Positions 3,989 to 39,311 of a DNA stretch of 64,000 nucleotides are shown one piece after another (the first letter of the stretch is position 1; every line of letters starts with the position of its first letter). Where the stretch lies: NCBI GenBank assembly GCA_965221905.1, contig OZ244922.1:672001-736000 (forward strand), read 5' to 3'. The notes under the pieces are model-generated. The model saw only the letters and a program-made list of their open reading frames with translations, did no database searches and was not told the DNA's origin. The DNA comes from Chloroflexota bacterium. Its GTDB lineage: Bacteria; Chloroflexota; UBA11872; VXOZ01. The translations under genes and the position numbers were made by a program.

Positions 3989-5605
3989 CTACCGATCCAA
4001 GAGCCGTTGGGCGATTTCCTTCGCCTCGTCGAGGCTCTTGACGAAGTGCGCGGTGGGCACCCGGTGCAGCACGTTGAGCGCCCGCAGAGTCGCGGCGGGC
4101 GGGCCGGTGAGGCCCATGATGATGCACTCGGTTTCCTCAGCGATAGCGCTATCGATCATTTGCTCGACCACCAGTGCGGCGCTGTCGTCTACGTAGACCG
4201 TATCGGAGAAGTCGAGAATCACGATCTCGTGGTCCCGGATGTCCACGCTGATGGTGTTGATCAGCTTGTTCGAGGAGGCGACGGAGAAGCTGCCTCTCAG
4301 CGCCACCAGGCCCACGCGCGCGGAGAATTCATCTGTCTCTTCCGCGCTTTCGTCACTCTCCAGGAAACTCTGGTCCAGCAGCGGCACCGAGACCACTCTA
4401 TCGAGTTCCAGGCGCTCGAACTGGCGTGCGCCGGCCATGCCGGCGGCAATCAGGCCGATGGCGACGGCGGTAACCAGGTCTACGAAGACGGTGAGCGCCA
4501 GGGTGATCAGCATGACGAGCAGGTGTTCGCGCTGCACGCGGTGAATCCGCAAGATGAATCGCCAATCGATGATGTCCCAGCCGACCTTCATCAGGATGCC
4601 GGCGAGCACCGCGTGGGGAATCGCCTCAACGTACTTGCCGAGACCCAACACGAGCGCCAGCAGGATTGCCGCCCGCAAGGCTCCCGATACTTGCGTCTGT
4701 CCGCCGGCGCGGATGTTCACCACCGTCCCCAGGGTGGCTCCGGCGCCCGGCAGGCCGCCGATAAATCCGGCTACTACGTTGCCGATCCCCTGGCCTACCA
4801 ACTCGCGGTTTGGGTTGTGACGAGTGCGGGTCATGGCATCGGCGATGAGGGAGGTAAGCAGGCTGTCGATGGAGCCGAGCAGCGCGAGGATCAATGCGGG
4901 TTCTATGGCTCTTACCAATAAGGAGAGAGAAAGCACGGGCAGCTCTATTTGCGGCAAACCGGTAGGTACCTCGCCAATCACCGGCGTGTTCGTCAACCAC
5001 AGTACGCCGAGCAGCGTACCGGCAACGAGGGCCGCCAATGTGGGAGGAAAATATCTCCGCAATTGCTGGGGCCACAACACGCCTACCGCGAGAGTCACTG
5101 CGGCAATGGCGAGCGCACTGAAGTTGGCGTTATTAATCGCGTTCGGCAAGGCCCGAACTACCCCAACCGGCCCGCCCGTGGCGCCGGTCGCGCCCAGGAA
5201 CGGCAGAGTCTGCAAGAGCATGATGATAATGCCGATGCCGGACATGAACCCGGAAATCACCGAATACGGCGTGAAGGCGACGAAGCGGCCGATGCGCATC
5301 ACGCCCAGCAGGATTTGTATGATGCCGGCCATGATAACGATGGTGAAGGCTTCGGCGAGGGTGTCGGCGTGGGTGGTGACGATAACCGCCATGGCCACGG
5401 CCATGGGGCCCGTGGGACCCGAGATTTGAGACCTCGTTCCGCCGAAAACCGTCGCGAAGAAGCCGACAGCAATTGCCCCGTAAATGCCGGCAAGCGCTCC
5501 CAGACCGGACGCCACACCGAAGGCCAACGCTACCGGCAGGCCCACCACGGCAGCGGTAATGCCGCCGAACAGGTCGCCCCGAAGTGTTTGAAGGTTGTAG
5601 GTCAC
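3989..5605 (-). CDS. SulP/SLC26 anion transporter with STAS domain (BicA-like)
   Basis: GDLFGGITAAVVGLPVALAFG, GGTRSQISGPTGPM, NRELVGQG, C-terminal STAS (ILDFSDTVYVDDSA). GTG 5605 is the likely start within ORF 3989..5683. Confidence 0.92.
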   Translation of the reverse strand: MTYNLQTLRGDLFGGITAAVVGLPVALAFGVASGLGALAGIYGAIAVGFFATVFGGTRSQISGPTGPMAVAMAVIVTTHADTLAEAFTIVIMAGIIQILLGVMRIGRFVAFTPYSVISGFMSGIGIIIMLLQTLPFLGATGATGGPVGVVRALPNAINNANFSALAIAAVTLAVGVLWPQQLRRYFPPTLAALVAGTLLGVLWLTNTPVIGEVPTGLPQIELPVLSLSLLVRAIEPALILALLGSIDSLLTSLIADAMTRTRHNPNRELVGQGIGNVVAGFIGGLPGAGATLGTVVNIRAGGQTQVSGALRAAILLALVLGLGKYVEAIPHAVLAGILMKVGWDIIDWRFILRIHRVQREHLLVMLITLALTVFVDLVTAVAIGLIAAGMAGARQFERLELDRVVSVPLLDQSFLESDESAEETDEFSARVGLVALRGSFSVASSNKLINTISVDIRDHEIVILDFSDTVYVDDSAALVVEQMIDSAIAEETECIIMGLTGPPAATLRALNVLHRVPTAHFVKSLDEAKEIAQRLLDR

Positions 5606-6068
5606 TATGGCTCTTCCAAGAGAATTGAGCGGAGTGTGCTTACTGCAAATCCTTGGTAACCGGTCTGGCCGCAAGTCACCCAATGGGAAGGCGCGGCTGC
5701 TCGGATGTCTGCCGGGAGGTAGCAGTACCGCACGCTGCTGGGCCTTGCTGGCGGGCTCTCACGACTCTGCCGACGGCAGCTTCTCCAAGCGTTGGAAAAC
5801 GAATATTCAAAGGTCACTAAATATTCCACAGCGAGTAAAATGCTACCACAACAGAATTGGCACGTCCGGGCTAGTCCACCGACACGAGTCGCTCAGAATA
5901 AGACCCGTTTAGTGGGGCCGGCAAGAGGATTTCCCCATAGATCGACGGAACAAAGTGCAGGGTGGGTTAGCATCGTTCCGCGCTTGAGATTCGAGCGCCT
6001 CGTGCGCGCAGAGAAGCAAGAATTTAGCAGACTGGCGGCACCACGAGCGCGAGAAGAGAAAGACCGCG

Positions 6069-7094
6069 TCAGGCTTCGTGTTCCAAGTGCCGCAGTTGCT
6101 CGTCGTGCCCCACCAGCACAACCCTATCGCCCGATTCCATGATCGTTTGCTCATCCGGTGTGAGCAGCAACCTGCCGCCTAGCTTGCTTACCGCGAGCAC
6201 TCGCACTTGATGCCCTGTTTCTAGTCCGGCAATGGTTGCTCCCACGAGCATCGAACCGGGCGCGACGGCAATCTCGGCGATCCGAGGGCTGACGCGGGCG
6301 TGATCCACGACACTATCGAAGTAGTCTGCCGCGAGCGGCTTGACGGCAGAGAGCGCCATGCGCCGCCCACCGATGCGGTACGGCGTGACGACCCGATCTG
6401 CGCCCGCCAACCTGAGCTTATCTCTGGTTTCAACGGCATCAGCGCGCGCGACTATGGTGAGATTGGGGTTGATAGCGTTGGCGGTAAGGGTTATGAGGAC
6501 GTTGTCGCTGTCGCTGCCGGTGGCGGCGATGAGGCCCCGGGCACGTTCGATCCCCGCTTCGAGGAGGGTCGCATTGTGGGTGGCATCTTTGCAGATGGCC
6601 AGGAGACCGTCCTCCTCCGCAGCGGCTATGGCGGCATCAGTGCTGTCAACGACGACTACGTCCACGTCTTCACCTTGAATCGCGGCGGCGGCTTCACGGC
6701 CCACTCTGCCGAAACCACAGAGTATGAAATGCGCTTCCACCGCATCGATCTTCTTTTTCATTCGTCGCCTCCGCATGAATACTCTGAGTACCTCGTCCTC
6801 TACCACGGTCTGCACGGTCACGGTGAGAATGTAGAGCATCAGCCCGACACCGCCCAACATGATGAAGAGGTTGAAAACGCGACCGAGCGGTGAAAGGGGC
6901 TGCACCTCTTCATACCCTACCGTCGTCATGGTGAGCACCGTCATGTAGACGGCGTCGAAAAGGCTCCAGCCTTCGATCACCACGTAGCCCGTGGAGCCCA
7001 CCAGAAAGATGATAGCAAGCGCCAGCCCGCCGCGCGTGAGACGGCTCGCGGCAATTGCCGCTAGGATATCGTGTAGATGGTGTCTGATAGCCAC
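6069..7094 (-). CDS. Two-TM potassium channel with RCK (TrkA-N/TrkA-C) domains
   Basis: Pore helix/filter YMTVLTMTTVGYEE, Rossmann CGFGRVG, C-terminal TrkA-C (GDRVVLVG). Confidence 0.9.
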   Translation of the reverse strand: MAIRHHLHDILAAIAASRLTRGGLALAIIFLVGSTGYVVIEGWSLFDAVYMTVLTMTTVGYEEVQPLSPLGRVFNLFIMLGGVGLMLYILTVTVQTVVEDEVLRVFMRRRRMKKKIDAVEAHFILCGFGRVGREAAAAIQGEDVDVVVVDSTDAAIAAAEEDGLLAICKDATHNATLLEAGIERARGLIAATGSDSDNVLITLTANAINPNLTIVARADAVETRDKLRLAGADRVVTPYRIGGRRMALSAVKPLAADYFDSVVDHARVSPRIAEIAVAPGSMLVGATIAGLETGHQVRVLAVSKLGGRLLLTPDEQTIMESGDRVVLVGHDEQLRHLEHEA

Positions 7095-8293: not shown

Positions 8294-9616
8294 TCAGCAT
8301 TTTTCTTGGCCCAAGACCTTCATAAGCTCCCGCAACAACTGGTTGAACTGTCTCTTCAGCTCCTCCAAGTCTCGTCCCCTATGGTCCCAGCGAACATTCG
8401 CCGTGTTTATTGAGAAAGTCCACTGAGAGTCTTGGGCGTCGGCGCTACTCACAATTCGCATGACCGCTCCCTCATTCTGATTGCCCTGGAATCTCGAAAA
8501 ATAGACTAGTAACTCTGCGGAAATAGAGTGCAACTCATCTAGTTTGGTTTCGAAATCTAAGAGAGGCTGTAAGTTTTCTGAGCTGCTGCATACTTGAACT
8601 ATCTTATTCTCTCTGGTGTTTGCGTTGACACTTATCATCGTATTCACTTCACCAAAGACATCCAATAGACGATCGTTCTTGTCCATACAGTACTTGAAGA
8701 ACGGATGCAAGACGGACTCGACATACTCCTTTGCAAGAAATTCCCGATCCCTCGTGCTCATAAGAGATTGCTTGAAGAGTGCGATCTCTTTGTCGATGTC
8801 ATTGATGTCGTCGGTCAGTTCGCCACGGGCGGCCTTTAGATGAAGTTTGAGGGCATACTCACAACACTGCGCAATGTAGTTTATGAACTCAGTTAGGTCC
8901 TCAGTCTTGTCAGCCCCCTCGAGTCTGTTCAGGTACTCGTTTCGGTCGTCTTGCCGGATCAATGCCACTGTGAATCCGTGCTTGATGAGGATCATGTTCA
9001 TCAATAGGCGGGCCATGCGCCCGTTGCCATCATCGAAAGGGTGGATACGCACGAAGCTGTAGTGGAAGGTGGCGGCGATGATTATCGGGTGTTCGCCTTC
9101 ACGCTCCTTGGTTCTATACCAGGCAAGGAGGTCGGACATCGCTGGCTTTACTTGCTCAGGGGGTGTGAAGTAGTAGATCTCTCCGGTCGATGTCACGACG
9201 TTATTGGGTGTGGACTTATAGTCACCAAGTGATATCCTGCGCCTCACTCGTTTTCCGTCCGGGGTCATAGCCTCGGTTTCATAAGGTTCCTTCAGCAACA
9301 CGCTGTGGAGATTGCGGATGAAGACCCCGTTCAGCTCTAGGTCGTCTCTCACCGCAGCCTCAATCGCCTTTACCGCGTTGTCATGTCCTTCTATGTCTAA
9401 GTGGTCCCGCAATGGCTTCCCGTGAGCGGTAAGTCCGTGCAGGATGAGGCTACGGGTCTCTCCGAGCGTCAGTGAGTTGCCTTCGATGGCGTTGGAGTTA
9501 AAGTTCGCCTCGAGCCGCAGCTTCTGTTCAACCTGAGCAAGGACAGTTGGCGGCAGCGGACGCAGACTGTCCAGCTCTTCCTTCAGCTTCGTGATAGTCT
9601 CAAGGATGTTGGCCAT
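8294..9616 (-). CDS. Fic family protein (AMPylase) with N-terminal auto-inhibitory motif
   Basis: Canonical HPFDDGNGRMAR motif; SNAIEGN matches (S/T)xxxE(G/N). Likely start MANILE at 9616. Confidence 0.9.
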   Translation of the reverse strand: MANILETITKLKEELDSLRPLPPTVLAQVEQKLRLEANFNSNAIEGNSLTLGETRSLILHGLTAHGKPLRDHLDIEGHDNAVKAIEAAVRDDLELNGVFIRNLHSVLLKEPYETEAMTPDGKRVRRRISLGDYKSTPNNVVTSTGEIYYFTPPEQVKPAMSDLLAWYRTKEREGEHPIIIAATFHYSFVRIHPFDDGNGRMARLLMNMILIKHGFTVALIRQDDRNEYLNRLEGADKTEDLTEFINYIAQCCEYALKLHLKAARGELTDDINDIDKEIALFKQSLMSTRDREFLAKEYVESVLHPFFKYCMDKNDRLLDVFGEVNTMISVNANTRENKIVQVCSSSENLQPLLDFETKLDELHSISAELLVYFSRFQGNQNEGAVMRIVSSADAQDSQWTFSINTANVRWDHRGRDLEELKRQFNQLLRELMKVLGQEKC

Positions 9617-9926
9617 TTGACGTTCGATTCCCTCTTCCAAGGGTCGCGCCTGAAACTCGTGATTGCGAGCTTCTTGGAGCAGGTGTGACAACGGACTTTC
9701 AAGAAACTCTCAGTGCCTCCCAAGCCCTTGGATTCCATATCATTATAAGGCTTGATGAAGATGGTTCGCCCATTGAGACAAAGTACGGCGGCTGCCAGGG
9801 GCGGGGAGAGTTTGGGTTAAACCCTGTTGTGTTTCGCCGAATCAAGGGGCCAATTGAAGCCTTATTGACCCTAAGGATGGGTGATTAAGTACTACAATCT
9901 CTTCTTCTAACTTGCCCGTGCCAAAA

Positions 9927-10293
9927 GACAGCGGGCGCAGGTTGCAAACCTACGCTACCGGAGACAAGACACATGAATCGGCTAACTCTCAAGTGATGAT
10001 CGGTCGCGGAGGCGTAACGGCCCTTGGCGACAGTAGTGGGTCGGCGTCAAAAGTTTTGGATCGATATTGCTTTCGGCATGAGCAGGCTAAAAGACAGCGG
10101 GCGCAGGTTGCAAACCTGCGCTACCGGAGCCAAGAGACGCGAACCGGCTAACTGTAAGGTAATGACTAGTCCCGGTGGCCAAACGGCCCTCGGCGGCAGT
10201 TTTGTCTCGTTGTCACGAGTGTTAGATCGGTACCGGTTCCGGCATGCGCCGCCAGACGACAGCGGGCGCAGGTTGCAAACCTGCGCTACCGGA
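9927..10293. repeat. Three direct copies of a palindromic GTAG-type REP (GACAGCGGGCGCAGGTTGCAAACCTRCGCTACCGGAG) at about 166-bp period
   Basis: Copies start at 9927, 10093 and 10258; the two spacers are diverged homologues of each other. Confidence 0.9.
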
Positions 10294-10373
10294 GTGGAAC
10301 CGATTCAAGCCGCTGTCTTTGCGCCGGCACCGTATTTGAGGTGGTGGCAGAGCGCAGTTAAATTGCCAGACGA

Positions 10374-11423
10374 TCAGCCCCCCTTGGCGCCGGTGATGTC
10401 GCGGCGTTGGAAGAGCCAGAACGTCAATGCGCCGAAGACGAGTGTGTAGGCGGCAAGCACAAGAACGGCGGGGAGCAATTCGGGCTGAGCCGCTTCGCTG
10501 CTGCCGTTGATCGAAATGGAGACCTCACCGTAGCTCGCTTGGAGCACGGTCGTGACGTTGGGGCTCAGCAAGTATTCGGAGATGCGCTGGAACCAGTCGA
10601 AGTTGTTGAGGATAGGAGAGGCCGTGGTCTCGATCAAGTAGTAGACCACGAAGGCGGTGATGCCCAGAGCCGTCGACGAGGTCAACGCCGTGGCGAGCAG
10701 CGCCAGCATCACATAGGGAAGAAAGCTAAGCAGCAGCGTTCCCATCTTGATTGGGACGTTGAGCCATTCTGCCGAGCCTTGCAGAGAGTCACCTTCCAGG
10801 CCGAACAGTCCTATGATGAGGCTGCTTAGCGCGACCGTAGCTGCGGCAACGACCAAGCCGGCCAGCGCTGTCACCATAAGCGCCAAAACCTTTGCCAGCA
10901 TGAACTGCCACCGACCCGTGCCCTTCGTCAGCACCGTCCGCAGCGTGCCCCAGCCGTACTCGCCCCCCAGCGCTGCCGCGGCCAGGATGCTGACGAGAAA
11001 GAACAGTGTGCCCTGCAACATCGTAAATGCCAAGAGGATGCTATTCGGCAGTAAGACCGCGTGGCGGGTAAAGTCGCGTACTTCCTCATAGCCTTCGCAT
11101 GATTTCCGGAACTCCTCGACACTCGCGAGGGCGCTATCGCGATGCCCGTCAGCGAGCTCTTCGATTCCCGGCGGAATGCGGTCTCCACGCACGTCCTTGC
11201 ACTTCCATTCCGCTTCGAAGACTGCTTCCTTGTTTTCGCCTTCGGTATCGCTCAATTGGATGCCATGTGTAGGCGAGAAGGGTTCGCTGCGATGCACCAC
11301 ATAGGCGCCCCATACTGCCGCCTGCATCAGGACTACAACTATTGCCAAGAGTACCCACGGCAACCAACGGCGGCGGACTTTGTGCCATTCCCAAACGGAG
11401 AGACGGAAGATGTGGGAGATCAC
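10374..11423 (-). CDS. ABC-2 type transporter permease
   Basis: Multi-TM, EYGWGTLRTVLT motif, C-terminal FQRRDI; abuts the ATPase gene. Confidence 0.87.
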   Translation of the reverse strand: MISHIFRLSVWEWHKVRRRWLPWVLLAIVVVLMQAAVWGAYVVHRSEPFSPTHGIQLSDTEGENKEAVFEAEWKCKDVRGDRIPPGIEELADGHRDSALASVEEFRKSCEGYEEVRDFTRHAVLLPNSILLAFTMLQGTLFFLVSILAAAALGGEYGWGTLRTVLTKGTGRWQFMLAKVLALMVTALAGLVVAAATVALSSLIIGLFGLEGDSLQGSAEWLNVPIKMGTLLLSFLPYVMLALLATALTSSTALGITAFVVYYLIETTASPILNNFDWFQRISEYLLSPNVTTVLQASYGEVSISINGSSEAAQPELLPAVLVLAAYTLVFGALTFWLFQRRDITGAKGG

Positions 11424-35433: not shown

Positions 35434-36720
35434 ATGACGAAGACCGGCCTTCCCAATAAAGAGGTAAAAGCGCCAACGGTACCGGAGAGTCGGCCGCGTA
35501 TGCGCCCCTGTGTGGTAGTGCACTATCACGAAGTGGGTTTGAAGGGCCGCAATCGGCCTTTCTTCTTGAGTACGCTCGAACAGAACCTCCACCGTGCAAC
35601 CGCTGGGTTGGGCGTGAAGCAAGTAGAGCGCGCCAGCGGACGCATCTTGCTCTGGCTGGAGCCGGATGCGCCCTGGGAACTCTTGAGCGAGCGCATCGCG
35701 CGCGTCTTTGGTGTGGTGAATTTCGCGCGTGGGTACGCAGTGAGACCGGCGCTCGATACCCTGATACAGGGAGTACTGTCACGGTTGCCGGAGGCGGGCA
35801 ATTTCGCCACCTTTGCCGTGCGCGCGCGGCGGGCATTCAAGGACTTGCCGCTTTCTTCACGCGAGATCGCCGTAGCCTTGGGCGCGGCCGTTCAAAAAAC
35901 GAGCGGCGCCGGCGTAAATCTCAACGCGCCGGACATGACGATCTATGTAGAGGTGCTGCCGCAATTTGCGCTGTTCTTCTTTGATAAGGTACGCGGCCCC
36001 GGCGGTCTGCCGGTGGGTAGCAGCGCGCCGGTCACCGTACTGCTCTCCGGCGGCATTGATTCGCCGGTGGCCGCTTGTCGCATTATGAAACGCGGTTCCC
36101 GCGCCGTACTTGTGCACTTTCATTCGTTCCCGTACCTCAATAGTGCCTCGCAGGAGAAGGCGCGCGAGTTGGCGCAAATCATTAGCGGTTACCAGGGAGA
36201 TACTCCGCTCTACCTGGTTCCGTTGGGCGAGATTCAGCGCCAGATCGTGGTCGCATGCCCCGCGCCCTACCGTGTCGTGCTCTACCGCCGCTTCATGGTG
36301 CGCATTGCCGAGGAATTGGGAAAGAGGCACGGCGCGCAAGCGCTCGTAACCGGTGATAGCCTGGGTCAGGTGGCGTCGCAAACTATCGAGAATCTCATTG
36401 CTGTCGAAGATGCCGCCACCCAGATCATGCTGCGCCCGCTCGTTGGCATGGATAAGCAAGAGATTGCTGACGAAGCCGAGCGCATCGGCACGTATGCCAT
36501 CTCCATCCAGCCCGATCAAGACTGCTGCGCGCTCTTCGTGCCCTCCAATCCCTCTATCCACACCGATTTGAACGGCATCCGCAAAGCCGAATCGGTACTG
36601 GACGTGGATACCCTCGTGCAACAGGGCATAGCGGAGGCGGAGATGGTGGAGTACCAATTGGCCGATAGCGTGGGGCTGAGAACGGTGCCGTCTTCACAAA
36701 AGCGGGTCATGGCTCCATGA
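35434..36720 (+). CDS. thiI: tRNA 4-thiouridine synthase ThiI (THUMP + PP-loop, no rhodanese domain)
   Basis: EVGLKGRNR, GPGGLPVG, LLSGGIDSPVA, GDSLGQVASQT, DCC; start may be 35500. Confidence 0.95.
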   Translation: MTKTGLPNKEVKAPTVPESRPRMRPCVVVHYHEVGLKGRNRPFFLSTLEQNLHRATAGLGVKQVERASGRILLWLEPDAPWELLSERIARVFGVVNFARGYAVRPALDTLIQGVLSRLPEAGNFATFAVRARRAFKDLPLSSREIAVALGAAVQKTSGAGVNLNAPDMTIYVEVLPQFALFFFDKVRGPGGLPVGSSAPVTVLLSGGIDSPVAACRIMKRGSRAVLVHFHSFPYLNSASQEKARELAQIISGYQGDTPLYLVPLGEIQRQIVVACPAPYRVVLYRRFMVRIAEELGKRHGAQALVTGDSLGQVASQTIENLIAVEDAATQIMLRPLVGMDKQEIADEAERIGTYAISIQPDQDCCALFVPSNPSIHTDLNGIRKAESVLDVDTLVQQGIAEAEMVEYQLADSVGLRTVPSSQKRVMAP

Positions 36721-37822
36721 CATTCACGATACGCGGGTTTTGTAAGTGCCACCGCTGACCAACTCGTTCGAGGTCACCTTCTGCGACAACCAGTGCCCTA
36801 TCCTGATGAGCCCGGATAGCAAGGTCATAGACACTCTGATTCAGAATTGTGGTGACCGACTCAGGTTTCTCGTCAATGGAGACCCTCAGAGTTATGGCCC
36901 CAGCTATTTCACTCTCTTCACGCTTCAACCTATGTACAAATCCAAATAGGCGCTCATCCATAATCGGCGCGCGGTTTCGAAATGACCGGGCAGCTTCACT
37001 CAATATCGGAGCATCATCTTGAGCGAAGCGGAAGACTTCCAGCGGCGTCTTCTGAGGAAGCGTATAAGACCAAACCAGACTGACATCCAAAGACGGAAAC
37101 GGCTCGACTAGCTGAGCTAACGCCTCACACAGATTGGCACTTGCACCATGGTTTACAGCTTCAGTAAACGCGTCAGTGTCTCCTCCAACTGCTCTTTCGG
37201 TTGCATTCCGCGTAGCTAACAGGGCTTCGGCCAAGCGCCTTGTCACGCGCCGCTCAATTGGAACGTCATCGTAACTTGAGTCAGGTAATAGAGGTGGCTG
37301 CGTAGGTGGCGGAACTACCGGACTCAAGAGTGTAACAACAAAGCTACCTTGTTCAGTTTGTCCCAGGCGGACTCGGTCTAAGTAGTCACTGGCATCTCTG
37401 TTCGCGCCAGCACGATAGAGTGGTCGTGGATGATGTAGCGAACACGCCGCAGCCAGGAGCATGTCACGCGCGCCTCCCACAAGGTTTATCCCGTCACTCA
37501 TTGTCACGCTGCCATCATAGTCTCCAATTGCTCGCACCCGAATTACGTCGCGGTCAGCAGTAACCAGTGCTCGGTAAAGAGAAACCTCGTCTGTGTCTGC
37601 GACTCTGGCGAAAATCTCGATGAGCTTAGATGTCACACTGGCGTAGTCACCGAGGTTTTGTGTGCGTGGTAGAACAATCTCTGGCAGTCCATCAGCGGCG
37701 TACACATCGGAATGGTCGCCAAAGGTATCGGCCTTGACCCAGCCTGCACTGCGGGCATATGCCGACAACGCCACCGGTGAAACCGCAAACAGAGCATCCC
37801 TATCAAGCATGCTGGCCCTCAT
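36707..37822 (-). CDS. Uncharacterised 371-aa protein coupled to DUF4365 gene
   Basis: Long ORF with ATGA overlap to the upstream gene; GQTEQGSF motif; no function recognised. Confidence 0.75.
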   Translation of the reverse strand: MRASMLDRDALFAVSPVALSAYARSAGWVKADTFGDHSDVYAADGLPEIVLPRTQNLGDYASVTSKLIEIFARVADTDEVSLYRALVTADRDVIRVRAIGDYDGSVTMSDGINLVGGARDMLLAAACSLHHPRPLYRAGANRDASDYLDRVRLGQTEQGSFVVTLLSPVVPPPTQPPLLPDSSYDDVPIERRVTRRLAEALLATRNATERAVGGDTDAFTEAVNHGASANLCEALAQLVEPFPSLDVSLVWSYTLPQKTPLEVFRFAQDDAPILSEAARSFRNRAPIMDERLFGFVHRLKREESEIAGAITLRVSIDEKPESVTTILNQSVYDLAIRAHQDRALVVAEGDLERVGQRWHLQNPRIVNVMEP

Positions 37823-38319
37823 TGAATTCCCCCTGTCCTAGACTGCTCCATCAAGTTTTGCAGACTCTCGATGGTGAACAGGTTGTCTCCTGGAATTGAA
37901 ATAGTGACGGACGTTCGGTTGGTCGCTTCCGGCTGTCCCTTGAGATTCACCCAGAAGGCTCGGCGCCTCAGAATCAATCCATTCTCAGTGATGGACACCC
38001 ATTCGCTCTTTTCGCGCGGCAAGTCAAGTACTACGAGCAGACGGGGAGTTTGGGTTTCATCGCATAGCAAATCATAATTTCGGAGCTTCAGTGGGAAACG
38101 ATAGAGCCCATTCTGCTGGTCGCCAAGATTGATGGTTGCTTTCAACTGTATGTCGATCGCTGGGCGCATTGTCCCGCCTGCCCTGATTTGCAGATCGACG
38201 CCGTCTCTATCAAAGTTAGGCTCAGTGGTGGTATAGCCGGCTCTTGCCGCCACCGCCTCCGTATAAACACGCGATAGTGCTTCTTCCTGGTCGGAATCAG
38301 ATAGCAATGAGTCAGTCAT
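37819..38319 (-). CDS. Stand-alone DUF4365-like PD-(D/E)XK-fold protein
   Basis: QEEALS...DRDGVDLQI...IDIQLKAT...NYDLL...PRLLVV...AFWVNL, a pattern typical of DUF4365. Confidence 0.75.
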   Translation of the reverse strand: MTDSLLSDSDQEEALSRVYTEAVAARAGYTTTEPNFDRDGVDLQIRAGGTMRPAIDIQLKATINLGDQQNGLYRFPLKLRNYDLLCDETQTPRLLVVLDLPREKSEWVSITENGLILRRRAFWVNLKGQPEATNRTSVTISIPGDNLFTIESLQNLMEQSRTGGIQ

Positions 38320-38444
38320 GCAGCCTTGGATGTACAGTCAATTGCTTTCGCCCACTCTTGTTATCACCACGCCTAGCTATAGCATATCATCTAGATTGAG
38401 AGGATTGTACGACCATCTATTCGGCGACGGAATCTAGTCTGACA

Positions 38445-39140
38445 CTAGCCCCGGTTCTTTGAATCAATACATTCGATCAGCGGCAGCAGGTGTTCGTAGA
38501 GTTCTGCCGTGGCGCGGGCGTCGGCCAGGCAGTACCGGGCAATTGAGTCCCAGTCGCCTTCGGCATAGGCCTTGGGCACCGCACTGCCTGTAAGACCCGC
38601 CTTGGAGTCTTCTATGCCGAACTGGTGGCACCAGAATTGCAGGGTGTACGGCGCGGTAGCGCGGTGAAAGGTCAGCGCTTCCATCAAGTCACAGTGGTGC
38701 TGGAAACTGTAGCGGTAAGGCATGAGATTGCGGGACGGACGGACGCCCAGCACGGCGGAGCGCAGCATGAGGATCGGGCAATCAAAAGTGCGGCCGTTAT
38801 AGGTCACAATGGTATCGGAGCGCTGTACGAGCTCCCAGAACTCAGTGAGGATCTCCGCTTCACCCCCGTGAAAAACGCGCGCGCCATCGTAAAGGGCCTC
38901 CCACTCGCGCGTTCCGGTGCTGTTGTTCACCAACACCCCGCCGCGCTGCTCGCCGGGCATCCACATGCCGATGGCAACGACCTGTGCGGTACCGGGATAG
39001 AGCGCCAATTGTTCCGGAAATGCCGCCCGCTCTTCGTCGTCCCGCGCCCGCTCCAGCAGGTAGTCTTGAATCGCGGGCATGAGCCCTTCCCACGGTAAGC
39101 CCACCGTTTCGACGTCTATGGCTAGCGGCTGAGATGCCAT
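38445..39140 (-). CDS. Stand-alone DEDDy 3'-5' exonuclease (PolB-exo/RNase H-like)
   Basis: IDVET, TYNGRTFD, HCDLME, YCLAD. Confidence 0.85.
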   Translation of the reverse strand: MASQPLAIDVETVGLPWEGLMPAIQDYLLERARDDEERAAFPEQLALYPGTAQVVAIGMWMPGEQRGGVLVNNSTGTREWEALYDGARVFHGGEAEILTEFWELVQRSDTIVTYNGRTFDCPILMLRSAVLGVRPSRNLMPYRYSFQHHCDLMEALTFHRATAPYTLQFWCHQFGIEDSKAGLTGSAVPKAYAEGDWDSIARYCLADARATAELYEHLLPLIECIDSKNRG

Positions 39141-39311
39141 GTGGGTCAATTCTCCTTGGGGTGAGGATCTTTGGCGCGCAAACACCTCAGGTGTTCGAGA
39201 CGCATGTCGGTGCTTGGCATAGTATCGCAATTGGAATAGTTGAGGCTATATTTGCTGCTTGCGACGTTGAAAAACCTCACTTTACCCTTTTTTTGAAAGC
39301 GCTAATCCTAC

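Follow-up and report, generated by a model that had tools for sequence, protein, structure and literature searches.

The PDC-M02 locus of the window

Within a 64,000-nucleotide stretch of DNA from a Chloroflexota bacterium (GenBank assembly GCA_965221905.1, contig OZ244922.1, positions 672,001 to 736,000 of the forward strand; hereafter the window, in whose coordinates positions are given), two genes, here termed A and B, form a coupled cassette on the minus strand between thiI and a gene encoding a PolB-like 3'-5' exonuclease (Table 1). The preliminary description of this DNA, made from the sequence without database searches, had held that the pair matched no named system. That claim failed when the two proteins were compared with PADLOC-DB v2, in which the entry PDC-M02 fits both. 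A aligned with PDC-M02A at an E value of 1.4e-57 (its residues 6-164 covering positions 3-165 of the 167 in the profile), and all 25 of its PADLOC matches were M02A models. B aligned with PDC-M02B at an E value of 3.1e-120 (its residues 1-370 covering positions 1-375 of the 380 in the profile), and the best 25 of its 38 PADLOC matches were all M02B models. The adjacency on one strand that PDC-M02 requires was also observed, both genes lying on the minus strand. As judged from these profile matches, the locus almost certainly represents PDC-M02, a candidate anti-phage system of two genes. The pair is widespread and already catalogued, and this copy is ordinary, with nothing structural to set it apart.

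The match to a described system removes the novelty that had been proposed for the cassette, yet PDC-M02 is itself a catalogued candidate only. According to the accessible part of the preprint by Payne, Hughes, Fineran and Jackson (bioRxiv 10.1101/2024.01.29.577857), phage defence candidates (PDCs) were predicted through guilt-by-embedding, as cassettes inside BREX, DISARM or type I restriction-modification (R-M) loci, and entered PADLOC as predictions, without experiment. Neither M02 nor DUF4365, the Pfam family of A, is mentioned in the available text of that preprint. The literature on other PDC-M candidates, in the portions that were accessible, names M05, M63, M01, M37, M39, M46, M60 and M62, and not M02; by title and opening of the abstract, the DUF4365 papers listed concern SPARDA systems or incidental annotations, and not the A-B pair. 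In RefSeq-derived plasmid records the homologues are labelled "hypothetical protein" and "DUF4365 domain-containing protein", and NCBIfam holds no family for A or B.

The list of open reading frames (ORFs) and the Pfam matches confirmed that both genes are real and are wedged between their neighbors as had been described, the 3' end of B sharing 14 bp with the convergent thiI (36707-36720). The reported ATGA is likewise present in the sequence, the stop codon of A and the start codon of B sharing it within ...CAATGAGG... (4 shared nucleotides). Translation of B might alternatively begin at another ATG, codon 5, and some close homologues are 367 aa long. A consensus scan of the spacer upstream of A gave one promoter-like site, on the plus strand only, with counts not above those of shuffled sequences; read-through transcription into A from the same-oriented exonuclease gene is possible. 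A hairpin with a 6-bp stem followed by CCGCTTTTGT (36706-36721, minus strand) covers the stop codon of B together with the thiI stop region, and the count of hairpin-type sites in a terminator scan was not above that of shuffled sequences.

Table 1. Positions of the cassette, its domains and adjoining features in the window
Feature	Position	Strand or orientation	Description
Gene A (PDC-M02A)	37819..38319	-	166 aa; stand-alone DUF4365, predicted PD-(D/E)xK nuclease; putative active site E13, D42, Q58-x-K60
Gene B (PDC-M02B)	36707..37822	-	371-aa ORF
ATGA stop/start overlap, A to B	37819..37822	-	Read in the sequence
B N-domain, residues 1-89	37556..37822	-	alpha-beta-beta-beta-alpha, putatively HicA/dsRBD-like; predicted to dock A
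B middle domain, residues 90-285	36968..37555	-	alpha+beta; most conserved motifs of the family; no recognisable solved relative
B OB-fold domain, residues 286-371 and stop codon	36707..36967	-	VIA and Foldseek matches
Variable (acquired) segment	36657..38444	.	Cassette, 125-bp spacer and last ~21 thiI codons
thiI	35434..36720	convergent with B	Pfam ThiI, E 4.3e-61
Spacer upstream of A	38320..38444	-	125 bp; no convincing promoter
PolB-like 3'-5' exonuclease gene, upstream of A	38445..39230	same orientation as A	PF10108, E 3.3e-20

The low GC content that had been noticed in the cassette was borne out by measurement. The cassette has 53.0% GC, whereas the window has 58.6%, and a value as low occurs in only 3% of 1613-bp intervals; GC at third codon positions is 0.57 in A and 0.49 in B compared with 0.71-0.75 in the neighbors. 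The genome that carries the cassette consists of one contig of 3.52 Mb. In one genome of the same genus (G004), the flanking thiI and exonuclease genes share 94-95% identity with those of the window and lie just 365 bp apart. Homology to G004 stops near window position 36656 and picks up again at 38445, and the interval 36657-38444 was therefore taken as the variable part; its GC content is 52.7%, compared with 60.4-60.6% in the flanks. The G004 site instead carries a gene for a 77-aa DUF2283 protein (L010 2812-3045; E 1.4e-11). A further genome, G005, shares the insert, with 95% identity across the 3797 bases compared. Neither a target-site duplication nor terminal repeats were found around the variable segment, which is flanked only by short, chance-like repeats. 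These comparisons indicate that the cassette arrived by horizontal transfer at a small variable site flanked by thiI and the exonuclease gene. In four congeneric genomes these two genes are 365 to 700 bp apart, which marks the interval as a small variable hotspot. The ThiI tail encoded at 36657-36720 is wholly unlike that of G004 (...YQLADSVGLRTVPSSQKRVMAP versus ...CQQEDTNSTAVKRKNTQPV). Given that the acquired segment holds these last ~21 codons, the insertion rewrote the C terminus of a housekeeping enzyme.

The nuclease, its three-domain partner and their predicted complex

A consists of DUF4365 (PF14280) alone. The Pfam match (E 8.9e-24; 84.6 bits against a gathering cut-off of 24.3) spans residues 13-158 and profile positions 1-137 of 139, and neither an APAZ domain, nor any other domain, nor a target-recognition domain of its own was found by Pfam. 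The E...D...QxK spacing that had been read in this stand-alone protein is real and conserved, with E13, S16, D37, D42, Q58 and K60 invariant in all 60 aligned homologues. Comparison of A alone with solved structures gave chance-level matches only (E of at least 0.31, to herpesvirus proteases), and a profile of the A family found no solved chain at E <= 10; SPARDA structures were thus out of reach by sequence. In the SPARDA protein TmuRE, as described in the accessible part of the source, the DUF4365 domain is a PD-(D/E)xK nuclease in which Q62 and K64 are the proposed active site and were mutated for an inactive control, and the SPARDA complex degrades DNA non-specifically once triggered (PMC10810196). 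The Q58/K60 pair of A corresponds to TmuRE Q62/K64. A keeps the catalytic signature of these enzymes and is a predicted nuclease.

B matched no Pfam family at E <= 1, whether HicA toxin, Argonaute/Piwi, helix-turn-helix (HTH), ribbon-helix-helix (RHH) or other, and its sequence matched no solved structure at E <= 10. An AlphaFold2 model based on 82 diverse sequences, with a predicted local distance difference test score (pLDDT) of 94.9 and a predicted template-modelling score (pTM) of 0.89, revealed three domains. Residue conservation was counted over 82 diverse members of the B family.

For the N-domain (residues 1-89), aligned from residue 7 onward, the best matches other than OB folds were 1whz_A (Z 7.8, root-mean-square deviation 2.9, 70/70 residues aligned) and chain 5yrz_D of HicBA (Z 6.8). 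Conservation in this domain is highest at W28 and P52 (each 82/82), D59 (81/82) and Y60 (74/82). In HicA the G-x-H loop precedes the second strand, and the loop of B is placed likewise; H37 was taken as the equivalent of the HicA histidine from secondary structure and not from a residue-by-residue alignment. HicA of S. pneumoniae has 1WHZ as its closest structural homologue, and HicA RNase activity depends on His36 (PMC6159526). H37, however, is kept in only 18 of the 82 family members, no HicB partner is present, and in the complex model described below the loop (residues 34-38 and 40) touches A and does not form an RNase site. The HicA-like N terminus that had been suspected thus has structural matches, at Z values in the range that the tool calls common, but no HicA match in Pfam, and the proposed G-x-H histidine was not borne out.

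The middle domain carries the motifs D92, R95, GQTExGS (154-160), R191, GxSANLC (226-232) and W251. The GQTEQGSF stretch (154-161), singled out from the single sequence, proved to be among the best conserved of the family, with G154 kept in 72, T156 in 70, E157 in 75, G159 in 79 and S160 in 78 of 82 members. Folded alone, the domain reached a pLDDT of 90.5. Among 48,161 chains searched with VIA, none matched it above Z 5 (best Z 5.0), and the best Foldseek match had an E value of 0.028 and a probability of 0.28. A ferredoxin-like, RRM or RAMP-like arrangement was considered and set aside as generic at a best VIA score of Z 5.0, and no fold was assigned.

The beta-rich C terminus, previously described as OB-like, is modelled as a five-stranded OB barrel with matches at Z 7-9.2. 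The VIA matches of residues 285-371 were SilF (Z 9.2), RPA (Z 8.3), the RecG wedge (Z 8.1) and SSB, PriB, MCM and HIN proteins (Z 7-8), and Foldseek returned SSB, RPA32 and Stn1 (probability about 1.0, E about 1e-2). Conserved residues of this domain are G294, R301, G308, Y332, H339 and G349; R301, Y332, H339 and W358 are candidate nucleic-acid-binding residues. In rare relatives TPR repeats follow the OB domain (P0131, 752 aa) or stand in its place (P0137, 453 aa), and because repeats are appended or substituted in this manner the C terminus of B is suggested to be an exchangeable sensor. In BFVD, which holds predicted viral structures, a full-length structural look-alike of B was found in Q6NE06, an uncharacterised 381-aa protein of the temperate Leptospira phage LE1 (E 2.4e-21, TMq 0.64). 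A weaker BFVD match was a DUF6575 protein, and the same family is the nearest with a Pfam name in the ESM Atlas, where the 30 nearest clusters are all "hypothetical protein" and the DUF6575 match, at 0.77, is a lead only. TPR proteins flank the pair in loci L023, L031 and L039.

Modelling of A and B together gave a complex score of 0.80 in each of three runs, whereas the best of three controls scored 0.00. At least 96% of contacts were common to the runs, and the partner pLDDT was at least 83. Of 157 solved complexes 116 reached the mark applied, as did 2 of 215 mismatched pairs; these rates serve only as a rough guide here, where our own alignments were used. The predicted interface comprises residues 8, 34-38, 40, 47-50, 52, 56-63, 65-66 and 70 of B, all in the N-domain, and residues 34-36, 38-39, 41, 49-52, 56, 84, 87-91, 93 and 162-164 of A. 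It covers P52, D59 and Y60 of B, which are among the most conserved N-domain residues, and the invariant R93 of A, and residues 41 and 56 of A adjoin the putatively catalytic D42 and Q58. The model supports binding, with the N-domain of B predicted to sit beside the active site of A.

Such an arrangement could also belong to a restriction-like split nuclease, akin to a type IV or type II enzyme divided between two subunits, in which B would recognise DNA and A would cut foreign (modified, single-stranded or structured) DNA without killing of the cell. That A is only 166 aa long and lacks a DNA-binding domain, that B has an OB fold and is predicted beside the active site, and that the pair often lies inside R-M operons are all consistent with this idea. 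A cognate methyltransferase is nevertheless absent as a rule, none was found among the scanned ORFs of the window, and OB folds mostly bind single strands and not specific duplex sites. The DUF4365 nuclease of SPARDA, moreover, is described in the accessible text as cleaving non-specifically once activated. A split restriction enzyme of this kind consequently appears unlikely.

Conservation, mobility and genomic context of the pair

A search for B in 41 related genomes found it in 7 genomes, at 8 places, and in 3 of the 16 other genomes of the same genus. An independent search of the same 41 genomes with an A profile returned the same 7 genomes, A lying directly upstream of B with both genes intact at 8/8 places. 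For a wider view, 80 loci from other species were picked by similarity to B. A near-full A ended at the start of B in 62 of them, 59 of these being free of stops; the remainder comprised one locus cut by a contig end, 13 with a partial or displaced A and 4 with no A. Of the 53 loci in which the ORF caller placed an intact A next to B, 43 have a B match that begins 4 nt short of the end of A. Pairwise distances of A and B, compared over 60 pairs, correlated with an r of 0.78, which was reached in 0 of 999 permutations. This correlation, drawn from sequence distances, indicates joint inheritance of the two genes, not binding.

The pair might instead serve the cell in housekeeping or DNA repair, as an accessory nuclease that has an SSB-like partner and no part in genetic conflict. 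OB folds and PD-(D/E)xK nucleases are common in repair, and the copy in the window adjoins an exonuclease gene. Its patchy occurrence in 7 of 41 relatives, its foreign composition, the congeners with an empty site between the same neighbors and the defence-related or mobile context of many loci nevertheless leave a repair role hardly credible.

Tight coupling of the genes and the predicted position of B next to the active site of A would also suit a type II-like toxin-antitoxin (TA) or addiction module, in which A as toxin and B as antitoxin would stabilise the DNA around them (R-M operons, plasmids or hotspots) and defence would be at most a by-product. In its favor, A is decayed or missing in 20 of the 80 loci (13 partial or displaced, 4 absent and 3 of the 62 near-full copies with an in-frame stop), all 82 B copies of these loci being open throughout; homologues occur on plasmids, and TA genes are frequent neighbors. 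This asymmetry is biased and is no evidence for faster decay of A, however, because the loci were selected on B, and in the unbiased set of 41 genomes both genes were intact everywhere. Furthermore, the antitoxin of a type II system is small and labile and has an operator-binding domain, a description not matched by B, whose 371 aa form three folded domains, including a conserved OB fold, and include neither HTH nor RHH. Such a protein far exceeds the needs of an antitoxin, and an addiction module is considered quite unlikely.

The in-frame stops in A occur in L023 and L041/L042, and some frameshifts in A may be sequencing errors, since many of the sequences are long-read metagenome assemblies. 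In L084 (7530-10000) a duplicated insert of ~1.2 kb parts A from B, and in L094 (4818-9741) ~5 kb interrupts A. Two genomes each hold two divergent copies ~5 kb apart. In L020 both copies (4609-6200 and 9504-11107) have A and B, the B proteins being 68% and 32% identical to that of the window; in L025 (10001-11095 and 15142-16248) the second B (59%) has no A detectable by tblastn at E <= 1e-3. Fusions of A and B were sought as Rosetta-stone evidence among eight odd-length representatives, of which three (P0247, P0233 and P0187) carry pieces of DUF4365 joined to B and no complete A; they were not counted, because they may be frameshifts, deletions or cut gene calls.

The B family is large, with 3356 clusters (50% identity) matching at E <= 0.001 and 669 at E <= 1e-30; the search of genome contigs for B homologues used a 16-row alignment. 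Homologues 48-68% identical to B were found in Chloroflexota, Latescibacterota, Acidobacteriota, Gemmatimonadota, Proteobacteria, Spirochaetia and Verrucomicrobiae, a spread across phyla that fits frequent transfer. Matches were present in 15 of 72,556 plasmid records, and tblastn over 50,697 phage records gave none.

Flanks of up to 10 kb around the 80 loci were searched by tblastn with seven query proteins taken from flanking ORFs that had been scanned against Pfam, and the R-M counts obtained are thus lower bounds. Type I R-M genes were found in 27 of the 80 loci, and the order hsdM/S-[A-B]-hsdR was observed in one orientation in 16 of the 80, with hsdM or hsdS upstream and hsdR downstream; MmeI-like enzymes were present in 3 loci. 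A Pfam scan of the flanks covered 135 ORFs, which amount to 22 loci with all six flanking ORFs and half of L050, and detected R-M domains in 9 of the 22 fully scanned loci. Other fully scanned loci contained HEPN/MNT, PIN, Fic, MazF, Schlafen-AlbA_2, DUF1828/1829, DUF4145, AAA-ATPase_like/PDDEXK_9 and transposases. The signal of embedding in R-M loci was thus reproduced independently, and most copies, that of the window included, lie outside R-M loci. Taken with the 8/8 and 62/80 counts and the r of 0.78, these observations support the earlier proposal of a module of nuclease and partner, and indicate that it is conserved, co-inherited and horizontally moving and has a defence-type context.

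One locus departs from the usual pairing. In L031 (6753-9989), inside a type I R-M locus, the usual place of the DUF4365 gene is taken by a gene for a 1078-aa DEAD/ResIII/Helicase_C protein, the stop codon of which overlaps the start codon of B. The locus may represent a swapped effector or a separate system that employs a B-like partner.

Embedding between hsdS and hsdR is a position shared with PrrC and RloC, and PrrC is found almost exclusively in type I R-M loci, as stated in the accessible part of the preprint (bioRxiv 10.1101/2024.01.29.577857). By analogy, the pair could be a guard of type I R-M, silenced by the R-M complex and triggered by a phage anti-restriction protein. The 16 embedded loci and the 27 with type I genes nearby are in line with such a role, and embedding is also how the authors of PADLOC found the PDCs, according to the accessible text. 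PrrC and RloC are unrelated to A and B, however, which have neither an ATPase nor an anticodon-nuclease domain. In 53 of the 80 loci no type I gene was found within 10 kb with the seven queries (a lower bound on linkage), and the copy in the window lies between housekeeping genes. A function dependent on R-M is therefore not general. A PrrC-like dependence was ruled out as the general mechanism, most copies being unlinked to R-M, and a guard role for the pair is very unlikely.

Proposed function and relation to known systems

The explanation preferred here, that the locus is a PDC-M02 copy acting as a sensor-gated nuclease defence, is given a probability of about 0.5 as a whole, and the gating mechanism by itself falls slightly short of even odds. 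A would be the effector, a minimal DUF4365 PD-(D/E)xK nuclease. The HicA-like N-domain of B is predicted to bind A next to its catalytic strands, and B would thereby tether and gate the nuclease. The OB domain of B would sense nucleic acid as a cue of infection, the likeliest being DNA from phage replication that is single-stranded or abnormal in some other way; in some relatives the TPR repeats would sense the cue. Binding of the cue would switch the A-B complex from a restrained to an active state, perhaps by oligomerisation as in SPARDA. By the same analogy, the active complex would degrade DNA and so block phage replication, either through direct attack on phage DNA or through abortive infection.

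Several observations weigh against a sensor-gated defence. No experimental test of PDC-M02 was found in the literature, and no report of nuclease, binding or defence activity was found for any of its members. The copy in the window lies outside any defence island, its neighbors encoding an ABC transporter, ThiI, a DegT aminotransferase and an aldo-keto reductase; the 53 loci in which the seven queries found no type I R-M gene, together with 6 of the 22 fully scanned loci that gave only housekeeping-type matches, point the same way. The N-domain scores of Z 6.8-7.8 are in the range that the tool calls common, for a domain that was folded within whole B. An OB fold alone proves no function, and the top match, SilF, is a metal-binding OB protein. 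The complex score is the confidence of the model itself and not a measurement, and the modelled complex would fit inhibition of A by B as well as activation.

Comparison with PDC-M02 as catalogued reveals the same gene order, strand and coupling, and relatives of the pair are likewise embedded in type I R-M loci; the copy in the window differs in being solo between housekeeping genes. With SPARDA (TmuRE-Ago and NbaSPARDA), A shares the DUF4365 effector family and the QxK signature. In those systems, as reported in the accessible parts of the sources, DUF4365 degrades DNA non-specifically after its release by a partner that acts as sensor (PMC10810196; PMC12205087). SPARDA, however, has APAZ fused to the nuclease and a short prokaryotic Argonaute as partner, whereas A lacks APAZ and B has no Argonaute/Piwi match in Pfam. 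A guide nucleic acid is not implied for A-B, and the middle domain of B resembles no solved chain above Z 5.0. Divona, an experimentally screened defence protein of integron cassettes, is described in the accessible text as combining DUF4365 with an Mrr-like nuclease and crr6 (10.1101/2024.07.02.601686); it shares the DUF4365 domain with A but fuses it to other domains in one polypeptide and lacks a B-like partner.

A bolder form of the sensor-gated reading is possible, if doubtful. B would then be a new type of sensor-adaptor, composed of a HicA-derived clamp on the edge of the nuclease active site, a signalling domain of a fold not seen before and an exchangeable sensor at the C terminus, which is the OB fold in this copy and TPR in rare relatives. 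PDC-M02 would be a guide-free analogue of SPARDA, in which phage single-stranded DNA or a phage protein releases or assembles the nuclease.

The copy in the window adds little in itself, being one more example of a very widespread, catalogued pair. The interest lies in the family, which is abundant across phyla and couples a SPARDA-type nuclease with a partner that has no Pfam family and whose middle domain lacks a solved relative. The predicted A-B interface and the conserved residues supply concrete mutants with which PDC-M02 may be characterised or dismissed.

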